This document shows positions 40,901-43,900 of a stretch of DNA of 64,000 nucleotides, piece after piece; positions within the stretch are counted from its first letter, which is position 1, and every line of letters begins with the position of its first letter. The position numbers were made by a program. This DNA is from Escherichia coli (GTDB taxonomy: Bacteria; Pseudomonadota; Gammaproteobacteria; Enterobacterales; Enterobacteriaceae), in the NCBI RefSeq assembly GCF_044324875.1, contig NZ_CP172185.1; one strand, 5' to 3'.

Positions 40901-43900
40901 ATAAATATACATGAACGCAAAAATCAGATACGGCCTGTCGGCTGCCGTTCTGGCGCTGATTGGTGCTGGCGCATCTGCTCCTCAGATACTTGATCAGTTT
41001 CTGGACGAAAAAGAGGGTAACCACACAACGGCATACCGCGATGGGTCCGGCATCTGGACCATCTGTCGGGGTGCCACGATGGTGGATGGAAAACCCGTTT
41101 TTCCCGGAATGAAGCTGTCGAAGGAAAAATGCGACCAGGTTAACGCTATTGAACGTGATAAGGCACTGGCATGGGTGGAGCGCAATATTAAAGTACCTCT
41201 GACCGAACCACAGAAAGCGGGTATTGCGTCATTCTGTCCCTATAACATTGGCCCCGGTAAGTGTTTCCCGTCGACGTTTTATAAGCGGCTTAATGCCGGT
41301 GATCGAAAAGGCGCCTGCGAGGCGATTCGCTGGTGGATAAAGGATGGTGGGCGTGACTGCCGTATCCGTTCAAATAACTGCTATGGACAGGTTATTCGTC
41401 GTGACCAGGAAAGCGCATTAGCCTGTTGGGGGATAGATCAGTGAGCAGAGTCGCCGCGATTATTTATGCTCTGGTTATCTGCATCATCGTCTGCCTGTCG
41501 TTGGCGGTCAATCATTACCGTGATAACGCCATAGCCTACAAAGAACAACGTGATAAAAAAGTCAGTGAGCTGAAGCAGGCGACCGCCACCATCGCTGACA
41601 TGCAGCAGCGTCAGCGTGATGTTGCTGCGCTCGATGCAAAATACACGAAGGAGTTAGCTGATGCGAAAGCTGAAAATGATGCTCTTCGGCGCAAGCTTGA
41701 TAATGGTGGCAGGGTGCTCGTCAAAGGAAAATGCCCTGTGCCATCCTCAGCCGAAACCTCCAGCGCCTCCGGCATGGGCAATGATGCCACCGTCGAACTC
41801 TCTCCAGTTGCTGGACGAAACGTTCTCGGTATCCGGGACGGAATTATCCGCGACCAGACAGCACTGAGAACGCTTCAGGAATACATCAGGACGCAATGCC
41901 TTCGATGATAGCGATAATTTTACTCATCATCCTTCACATCTGGCTCTGTAGACAGGGTGGTGATCACTTCTGGAGTGAATCCAGATTAAACATCTCATTG
42001 CTGATGCTTGATATTGAGCATCTGGCGCGCGGTAAGGGGCTGCGTTGAGATAAGAGCCAGTCATTAAAAATACCTGGATTTAGCCTCGCATTCGCGGGGC
42101 TTTTTTATTGCCATTACAAAAGCCACTCCCTACAGAGTGGCTTTGATAATGGCTTATACCCTACACGGGATAACTTAACTGATATCCCTTTTAACGGATA
42201 AAGGTATTCAAGCCTGACACATCATGCGCTGTATCGTCGCTGTATTCCCGCATTAACCATGACCGTAGCCCGACGGGGAACTCCTTCTGCGCGAGTGTGC
42301 GGGAATAATCAAAAACGATGCACACCGGGTTTTTACCGCGCTAATGATTCGCGGGTTTGTCCCTCATGCTCGCCAGTCCGGTGCGATGGTGGAAGAAACC
42401 GGAAGCTGTATTACAGAAAGTGCTACTACTGTATCCTGATGCGATGTATGTAATGTGAGTCAGATAATGGCACAGGATGTGGTGATGTGGCAGTCTGGAA
42501 CACAGGATATATTGTCAGAATAAGACCCGTAGGAATAAAAATGAAAAGACGCCTTTCACTACTTTTTCTGTTATCTGCCCTGGCAGTGGGATGCTCGCAG
42601 CAAAAAGCTGATGAGCCCCGGCAATTAGTGACGGTGTATCCACGATATCCGGAATATGCTGCAGCAAATTATATCAAGGGGCTGGTTGAGGTTAAGTTCG
42701 ATATTGGTGCTGACGGGACTGTGACACGGATCGTTTTTCTCCGCTCAGAGCCTCATAATTTGTTTCGTGATGAAGTGGTGAAGGCCATGGCGAAATGGAG
42801 ATTTGAAAAGAATAGTCCCCGTCAGGGAGTGAAGAGACAATTTATCTTTACGCCATCACGTCCCTGATGCTTCCAGGTAGAGAGGGGCTGGAAGCAGGAG
42901 AAAAATGAAAGAGCCAGCGGTTATATTTTTGTCATGGCTGACGAGAAATGATGGAAGAAGGCGTTGTATGCCACACAACGCCTCACTGTTCATTTCTTCT
43001 TTTTCTCTGGTGTAACCCGATGAATAAGAGTTGCACTGGTTTCCGATGAGATGGCGATATGCTCGGGCAAAGTATGCTGGCAGTTTTCCAACTGGTCAAA
43101 AATACCTGCTCTCGTCTGTTGCAATGCCTGCAGCATGCGGCGGCAATGCGCCTTTGCTTTTGCTAACCATCTTTCCTTACTCTATCAGTCGCTGCGTGAA
43201 CTCATCATGGAATACCAGGTAAATGCGGATGTTATCGGTTTTGGCTACGCAGCATAGTACAAAACGGACAGGTGCATCCCGGAATGGGGGAGGCGTCACA
43301 TGTCCCTGTGATGGTTGTTCCGGGTAATGCACTGTGTGGGGCATAAAAATGTCCGATAATTTTACTTTCTACCGCAGTTAGTTGATTCGTTGGTCCTGGT
43401 AGCACATTGGGCGAGGGTTTAAATGCCAGGCAACTGAAGGATGATGTTGCAAGGGAGATAGCGAGAATATTTCTGATTTTCATTTGATGATGCCTCTGTG
43501 TGAAATGACGGTAAACGACGCACTTGTGCCGGCACATAATAGCAAGCATCAGAATAGATCAGATTCGATTCTTGCTGTAAGTGATAATTATTCTCGTTTT
43601 TTTCGGGTCCTTTCCGGCGATCCAACAGGTTACGGGGCGTCGACCTCGCGCAAAACAACTCCTTATGAAATTTTTACGGGAAATTCAGATCCGTTCTTCT
43701 TTCTTGTAAGTCATTGTGTATATTGAATTTTATTTGTTCTGAGAAAGGATCTGATAAGGCTTCGTTTCGCCTGAAAAGGCAGTTTTAAGATCCTTTCTTA
43801 AAAAAACGGGTCATTTTCTTGCTGGAGGGGATGCTGGTGTGAGGGTTAACAAGAAAAAGCTGGCTGAGATTTTTGATGTTGATGTGCGGACTATATCCAC

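Follow-up and report, generated by a model that had tools for sequence, protein, structure and literature searches.

We found that a 64,000-nucleotide stretch of Escherichia coli DNA (contig NZ_CP172185.1 of RefSeq assembly GCF_044324875.1; hereafter the window) carries, between the lysis genes and the cos site of a lambdoid prophage, a gene whose product is a lipoprotein-type precursor bearing a genuine TonB C-terminal domain, without the membrane anchor or the proline-rich spacer of TonB. This assignment is supported by sequence comparisons and structure models alike. At the level of annotation the protein is already known, as the 100% identical E. coli copies are named 'TonB family protein'. 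What we propose in addition is that this TonB domain, tethered to the outer membrane and unable to exert force, would competitively occupy the TonB boxes of TonB-dependent transporters and thereby reduce the entry of phages, colicins and siderophores. Considering the sequence, the models and the available analogies together, we give this proposal about an even chance of being correct.

The open reading frame (ORF) is uninterrupted, comprises 108 codons and spans exactly 42541-42867 on the + strand, stop included; its translation matches PF03544 and TIGR01352. A Shine-Dalgarno motif, AGGA (42531-42534, + strand), can be read 6 nt 5' of the ATG. The first 18 residues (MKRRLSLLFLLSALAVGC; M1-C18, 42541-42594) form a lipoprotein signal peptide with a KRR n-region followed by a hydrophobic core and the lipobox L14-A15-V16-G17-C18. 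A PROSITE PS51257-type pattern matched LFLLSALAVGC (residues 8-18), ending at Cys18, with Ser19 as the next residue (+2). Translation and pattern thus agree with the first-pass annotation of the window, which had described a 108-aa lipoprotein with lipobox LAVGC at 42541-42867. Lipoproteins of E. coli are cleaved before the lipobox cysteine, here Cys18, acylated, and transferred to the outer membrane by the Lol pathway when the +2 residue is not Asp. Sorting to the outer membrane is therefore predicted, since the +2 residue is Ser, and we infer that the mature lipoprotein is located there. The lipobox pattern is kept in 56 of 68 distinct short relatives, whose +2 residue is Ser, Thr or Ala and in no case Asp.

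According to a gapless alignment with TonB, the mature protein (C18-P108) corresponds to TonB residues 145-235, and a short tether of 7 residues (S19-E25, 42595-42615, + strand) links the acylated cysteine to the folded domain. Pro26, separated from Cys18 by these 7 residues, aligns with the residue at which the TonB chain of the BtuB complex entry (2gsk_B) begins. The domain proper (residues 26-103, 42616-42849, + strand) corresponds to TonB 153-230 and is arranged as β-α1-β1-β2-α2-β3 according to AlphaFold and Foldseek.

Profile searches left little doubt about the nature of this domain. The sole Pfam match of the protein was TonB_C (PF03544, E-value 3.2e-13, residues 33-102), and TIGR01352 scored 48.6 bits against a curated cutoff of 27.1. 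A phmmer search of all Protein Data Bank (PDB) sequences returned only TonB-family C-terminal domains, with E. coli TonB (1u07, 1xx3, 2gsk_B and 2grx_C) at the top; the best E-values were about 1e-14 to 2e-14, and a gapless alignment of 80 residues placed positions 24-103 of the query on TonB 151-230. Identity to E. coli TonB over residues 26-103 is 41% (32/78). Furthermore, the equivalogs for full-length TonB (NF008080-NF008084) reached 46-67 bits against cutoffs of 265-448, and only their C-terminal ~80 profile positions were matched. The TonB signal anchor, which includes His20, and the proline-rich spacer are absent, and the N-terminus consists of the 18-residue signal peptide and the 7-residue tether.

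Structure prediction gave the same picture. An AlphaFold model built from a 32-sequence alignment had a core confidence (pLDDT) above 90 and the element order β-α-β-β-α-β (E-H-E-E-H-E), which is that of a control model of E. coli TonB with an offset of one residue. A Foldseek search against the PDB retrieved 1u07_A with an E-value of 1e-8, 2gsk_B (BtuB complex) with a TM-score of 0.93 and a root-mean-square deviation of 0.9 Å, and 2grx_C (FhuA complex) with a TM-score of 0.92. The β3 strand (R94-F103, 42820-42849, + strand; strand E75-84 of the model), which corresponds to TonB 221-230 and to which we assign a role based on PMC11658791, was predicted at high confidence. Two claims made earlier from the sequence alone, namely similarity to the TonB C-terminal domain and lack of the TonB anchor and spacer, thus stand: by Pfam, TIGR01352, phmmer and AlphaFold/Foldseek the similarity is far beyond chance. 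The residue pattern cited for it then is correct in part. P.YP and VKFD...DG.V (with three residues between the two halves) are shared with TonB, whereas the full 'YP.YP' is found only in the phage protein (TonB has QPQYP) and the 'S' of the proposed 'S.P.N.F' is out of register.

The residues retained by the phage protein are those that matter in TonB. When TonB 150-239 was scanned completely by cysteine substitution, only seven positions proved to matter for function, Y163, F180, G186, F202, W213, Y215 and F230; these discriminate among transporters and colicins, and several of them are poorly conserved across TonB proteins at large and conserved in those of enteric bacteria (PMC3005593). 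Their counterparts are Y36, F53, G59, F75, W86, F88 and F103, six identical and one changed, Y215→F. The family alignment shows no variation at W86, F75, G59 and Y36 and almost none at P37, which forms the YP motif with Y36. Compared with the E. coli TonB C-terminal domain (~150-239; 1U07, 1XX3, 2GSK chain B, 2GRX chain C), the phage protein therefore has the same Pfam/TIGRFAM domain, the same fold, the YP motif, the seven key residues with one Y→F, and the β3 edge strand. It is likewise basic, with a pI of 9.9 for the mature form and 10.4-10.7 for TonB. In contrast, it ends 5 rather than 9 residues past the F230 equivalent, and a cleavable lipoprotein signal peptide and a predicted outer-membrane tether replace the anchor, His20 and the spacer.

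These features suggest how the protein could act. Because the anchor and spacer are absent, it should neither couple to ExbB/ExbD nor transmit force. Furthermore, because only 7 residues lie between the lipid and Pro26, the domain would be kept next to the periplasmic surface of the outer membrane, the site at which TonB boxes emerge. There it could occupy the TonB boxes or the periplasmic faces of FhuA, FepA, CirA and BtuB, as well as incoming group B colicins, and competition with the real TonB would then lower the TonB-dependent entry of phages, of colicins or microcins, and of siderophores. We infer a role for the prophage in exclusion of superinfecting phages or bacteriocins. The TonB box is known to join β3 of TonB by parallel β-augmentation, for which secondary structure matters more than side chains (PMC11658791).

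The idea of a decoy is reasonable and has a mechanistic precedent. Experiments with exported fragments of TonB reportedly go back to Howard et al. 2001. According to a more recent preprint, exported TonB 33-239, 103-239 and 122-239 inhibit TonB-dependent transport in vivo, an effect that its authors ascribe to a blocked interaction between TonB and the transporter (bioRxiv 10.1101/2020.01.05.895219). Such fragments, which act as dominant-negative inhibitors and likewise place a TonB C-terminal domain in the periplasm without an energy-coupling anchor, abolish ferrichrome transport and make cells grow as if deficient in iron. They are, however, soluble, overexpressed and artificial, whereas the phage protein is natural, 41% identical and lipid-anchored. 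The preprint also allows that inhibition by the fragments may involve ExbD, which a domain tethered to the outer membrane would be less likely to reach.

More tentatively, the protein could be a natural phage-borne decoy of broad spectrum, one that would make lysogens less susceptible to phages that depend on TonB, to group B colicins and microcins, and to antibiotics conjugated to siderophores, and whose expression in some lineages would be induced via Fur when iron is scarce. We consider this wider version possible but somewhat doubtful.

To build a docking proxy, the mature protein was joined through a (GGGGS)5 linker to FhuA residues 1-23, TonB box included, and modelled as a single chain with the 32-sequence alignment. 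The domain folded and the FhuA peptide remained a coil with a pLDDT of 50-59. Since the positive control, E. coli TonB 147-235, behaved identically, i.e. the genuine TonB failed as well, the proxy is uninformative either way.

Several observations weigh against the decoy. Full-text literature searches found no functional study of this protein, and PADLOC had no defence-system model matching it. A general inhibitor of TonB would also cost the lysogen iron and B12 uptake. Near the TonB-box contact, the family has specific changes (R158→T31, Q160→Y33 and R166→Y39, TonB residue given first) that could mean a different partner. As TonB lacking residues 158-162 still gives 60% of ferrichrome transport, divergence around Q160 does not disqualify the protein as a decoy. 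Short lipoprotein relatives are furthermore found in chromosomal, non-phage contexts in Gibbsiella, Rahnella, Erwinia and Pantoea, which suggests a cellular role that is not necessarily directed against phages. Finally, no σ70 consensus promoter was detected on the + strand between 41800 and 43900, and upstream of the window allele there is no Fur box, the best match having 7 mismatches to the 7-1-7 consensus. Given the lack of a σ70 promoter and the late-operon strand, read-through of late transcription is the only expression that can be deduced for the window allele, and its expression in lysogens may be limited to such late lytic read-through.

The gene is widespread in E. coli. The window-type allele was found in 1,224 of 5,426 complete genomes, and the exact protein is present on at least 999 contigs. 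A second allele, 70% identical, occurs in a further 415 of the same 5,426 genomes, in O157-type and Stx1a-type lambdoid prophages. Among 50,697 phage records only 15, all temperate, carry the gene. Short lipoproteins that are related more distantly (40-44% identity) abound in Salmonella and Klebsiella. The slot after the spanin genes and before the terminase is the same in E. coli, Salmonella and Klebsiella, whose prophages represent three lineages of packaging module, the modules next to the relatives being HNH/Terminase_4/TerL in Salmonella and Terminase_2/Terminase_6 in Klebsiella. Many of the next-best database matches, P0043 among them, are long and contain TonB_C repeats in tandem, 2-6 per protein; P0036, for instance, has 513 aa and six matched stretches.

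Comparison of otherwise syntenic phages showed that the gene comes and goes. BP-4795 and the O157-type locus L014 share Rz, a conserved non-coding element and the DUF3950/HNH/terminase genes, yet the interval between these shared flanks measures 246 nt in BP-4795, which lacks the TonB-like gene, and 653 nt in L014, which holds it. Therefore, the gene behaves as a mobile accessory cassette, and the slot in which it sits, between the lysis genes and cos, is variable.

Between the two E. coli alleles, the whole gene has a dN/dS of 0.10-0.12 at a dS of 1.5-1.9, i.e. with synonymous sites near saturation. The ratio is 0.09-0.15 in the signal region and 0.08-0.10 in the TonB_C domain (against the 70% allele). 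Variation is greatest in the tether S19-E25, whose dN/dS was 0.15-0.76 over three allele comparisons. The length of 108 aa, the lipobox and the C-terminus are kept across alleles of 68-96% identity. These comparisons indicate that the gene is complete and under purifying selection. Since it is selected and conserved in length and lipobox, database names containing 'partial' or 'fragment' are misleading.

In contrast with the window allele, several relatives are preceded by Fur-box-like sites. These were found at loci L003, L005, L009 and L006, each time upstream of a TonB_C gene. The relative in a Salmonella prophage has TGATAATTATTATCA (L003 327-341), with 0 mismatches to TGATAATnATTATCA, 14 nt from the start; two metagenomic relatives have sites with 1 mismatch each, 15 nt from the start; and a chromosomal relative in Gibbsiella has one with 3 mismatches, 16 nt from the start. 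In shuffled sequences, the observed best match to the 19-nt Fur consensus was reached 0-13 times out of 3,000 for the Salmonella, Gibbsiella and metagenomic P0040 sites, and 33-36 times out of 3,000 for weaker 14/19 matches, including that of metagenomic P0039. At the position of the relatives' Fur boxes, the O157-type allele (L014 5966-5985 / L017) has the palindrome AGAATAAG-A-CTTATTCT, ~18 nt 5' of the start codon, half of which was lost from the window/phage 21 allele by a 13-nt deletion. The Fur-box-like sites link the family to the iron/TonB regulon and argue against a role in lysis; they are not directly applicable to the window allele, and from them a blocker of transport cannot be told from a helper.

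Another palindrome close to the Fur consensus, TGAGAATAATTATCA, is located in L003 (1476-1490), at the junction between the HNH and small terminase genes of the Salmonella prophage, where cos is expected; none arose by chance in shuffles of the locus. In the window, a Fur-like site with 2 mismatches (43582-43596) adjoins cosN. Because near-consensus sites occur close to the Salmonella terminase gene and to the cosN of the window, some of these Fur-like palindromes may mean something else.

The same data bear on what else the protein might do. It could be an accessory of the iron regulon or a retargeted binding module that addresses another periplasmic or outer-membrane partner or modulates transport instead of blocking it, with a benefit to the lysogen unrelated to the exclusion of phages or colicins. 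The short lipoprotein relatives in ordinary chromosomal contexts of other Enterobacterales fit this explanation, as do the Fur-box-like sites 14-16 nt before the start of several of them, as expected for expression under iron starvation, and the family-specific substitutions near the TonB-box contact. TonB-like domains have, moreover, evolved other ligands: the C-terminal domain of FusB binds ferredoxin (PDB 9hi3), and both FusB and HasB are diverged TonB C-terminal domains with altered partners, although these two are energy transducers anchored in the inner membrane. Nevertheless, the transporter-recognition residues and β3 are intact here, it is hard to see how a TonB domain fixed to the outer membrane and unable to exert force would assist transport, and the window allele has no Fur box, so we regard this explanation as unlikely. 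A further candidate is exclusion of the type exerted by T5 Llp and prophage Cor, which are small, acylated, attached to the outer membrane, and exclude phages by binding FhuA on its periplasmic face (bioRxiv 10.64898/2026.03.26.714494). A protein of this type would not compete with TonB in general; it would bind the periplasmic face of a single transporter, e.g. FhuA, and change its outer loops allosterically, so that phages could no longer adsorb. Like the TonB-like lipoprotein in its proposed role, Llp and the Cor proteins of φ80 and N15 are small phage lipoproteins of the inner leaflet of the outer membrane that act on a TonB-dependent transporter, closing FhuA from the periplasmic side; Llp requires acylation for its activity, the TonB and Llp sites on FhuA overlap, and substitutions at the equivalents of TonB 158, 160 and 166 could tune specificity. 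However, there is no kinship in sequence or fold, the protein matching only TonB_C in Pfam, the TonB C-terminal domain fold, and phrog_1267 and phrog_34172 in PHROG. Llp and Cor also have another genome position and are specific for FhuA and allosteric, whereas all such transporters share a TonB box that a TonB domain could address, and the residues retained are those that TonB uses across many transporters. Receptor-specific exclusion hence seems quite improbable to us.

Two other explanations fared worse. The match to PHROG 1267, 'Rz-like spanin' (E-value 2e-40), and a position immediately 3' of Rz/Rz1 and on their strand in all phage lineages examined could point to a lysis accessory or spanin-like outer-membrane lipoprotein that is co-expressed with the lysis genes and contributes to disruption of the outer membrane. 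However, a complete Rz with an embedded Rz1 is already present, 632 nt and two terminator-like hairpins separate the gene from Rz, and the product has a 78-residue globular TonB fold instead of being a short proline-rich o-spanin. The gene is, furthermore, missing from the syntenic BP-4795 and has relatives outside phages. We therefore rejected the PHROG label on the basis of gene arrangement and fold; it was most likely carried over from the position of the gene, and a function in lysis appears very improbable. As for the possibility that the gene is what is left of a host tonB that was captured and no longer functions, it would account for the annotators' names 'partial tonB-like' and 'TonB fragment' and for a protein that corresponds to no more than the C-terminal ~40% of TonB. 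Against it stand the dN/dS of 0.10-0.12 at saturated synonymous sites, the conserved length, lipobox and C-terminus, a signal peptide of its own, which TonB lacks, an identity to TonB of 41% over the domain, which speaks against recent capture, and wide occurrence in three genera. This explanation is hardly credible.

If the proposed competition for TonB boxes is correct, it would represent a new form of host protection by a prophage, in which the energy-coupling domain of the host is copied to the outer membrane and jams a step common to all TonB-dependent import, in contrast with Llp and Cor, which mask a single receptor. It could shape differences among strains in sensitivity to therapy phages, to colicins and microcins of the gut and, as we extrapolate, possibly to siderophore-antibiotic conjugates. 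Studies of TonB-box recognition would also gain a monomeric TonB domain that lies close to the membrane and is a product of natural evolution. If there is no such effect, the protein would still be a widespread and selected prophage lipoprotein, and its Fur-regulated chromosomal relatives would point to a role for free TonB domains in iron physiology.

The gene lies where it had been placed earlier, between lysis genes and cos. Upstream of it are genes for a holin (39981-40253, PHROG 1350), a lysozyme (40911-41444), the i-spanin Rz, which ends the lysis cassette (41426-41908, + strand), and the o-spanin Rz1 embedded in Rz (41661-41867), the latter three taken from the ORF list and the two spanins also from the annotation of related loci. 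Downstream are a cosN-like 12-mer, GGGCGTCGACCT (43635-43646, + strand), and the genes for the small (43839-44387) and large (44317-46287) terminase subunits, both on the + strand and identified from the ORF list and near-identical prophages. The gene starts 632 nt 3' of Rz, and 768 nt separate it from cosN. In a BLAST search with the right end of phage 21, L001 3926-5315 aligned with window positions 42225-43634 at 96.5% identity; the right end of the phage 21 genome thus maps to 43634, next to the cosN-like site. The phage 21 orthologue, CPT_21_73, is 96% identical, is annotated 'TonB C-terminal domain protein' and adjoins bor.

The suggestion that the gene sits in the slot where lambda carries bor requires an amendment. 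Both genes do lie in the same variable region from Rz to cos, but the TonB-like gene has not replaced bor: since phage 21 carries the two side by side, they are neighbours. The window has no bor in this slot, as its homology with phage 21 begins only after that gene. Lambda Bor, which is Iss-like, is likewise an outer-membrane lipoprotein encoded by an accessory gene in the region 3' of the lysis cassette, and phage growth does not require it; Bor is, however, encoded on the opposite strand and unrelated in sequence to the TonB-like lipoprotein. In one complete carrier prophage that we examined, the J and side tail fibre genes are present and no cor is annotated.

A conserved non-coding element precedes the gene at 42225-42410 (+ strand), as seen in alignments and in 432 phage records. 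Between diverged alleles, conservation of these ~185 nt exceeds that of the gene. The element was found in Stx1 and Stx2 phages, BP-4795, mEp460 and, in part, lambda, usually directly after Rz and with or without the gene. Its indels have lengths that are not multiples of three, and RNAalifold proposed 41 pairs, 7 of them with compensatory changes. A search of Rfam gave no credible family for it. We consider the element a candidate structured RNA or leader. A conserved GATAAT ~75 nt upstream of the gene was considered as a promoter and rejected, as no acceptable -35 accompanies it.

Two terminator-like hairpins in tandem, one with a T run 3' of Rz (42082-42101) and another at 42122-42141, both on the + strand, were detected by the terminator scan and inspection of the sequence. 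Both fall between Rz and the conserved element, within the expected Q-antiterminated late transcript. The scan of 41800-43900 also reported a weak terminator-like site at 43339.

An ORF on the minus strand (43232-43549), situated between the TonB-like gene and cosN, encodes 83 aa from an internal Met, with an N-terminus resembling a signal peptide (MKIRNILAISLATSSFSCLAF) and six cysteines. It had no match in Pfam or PHROG. The Fur-like site at 43582-43596 mentioned above lies upstream of this ORF, which is unannotated in phage 21 and intact both there and in a near-identical prophage.

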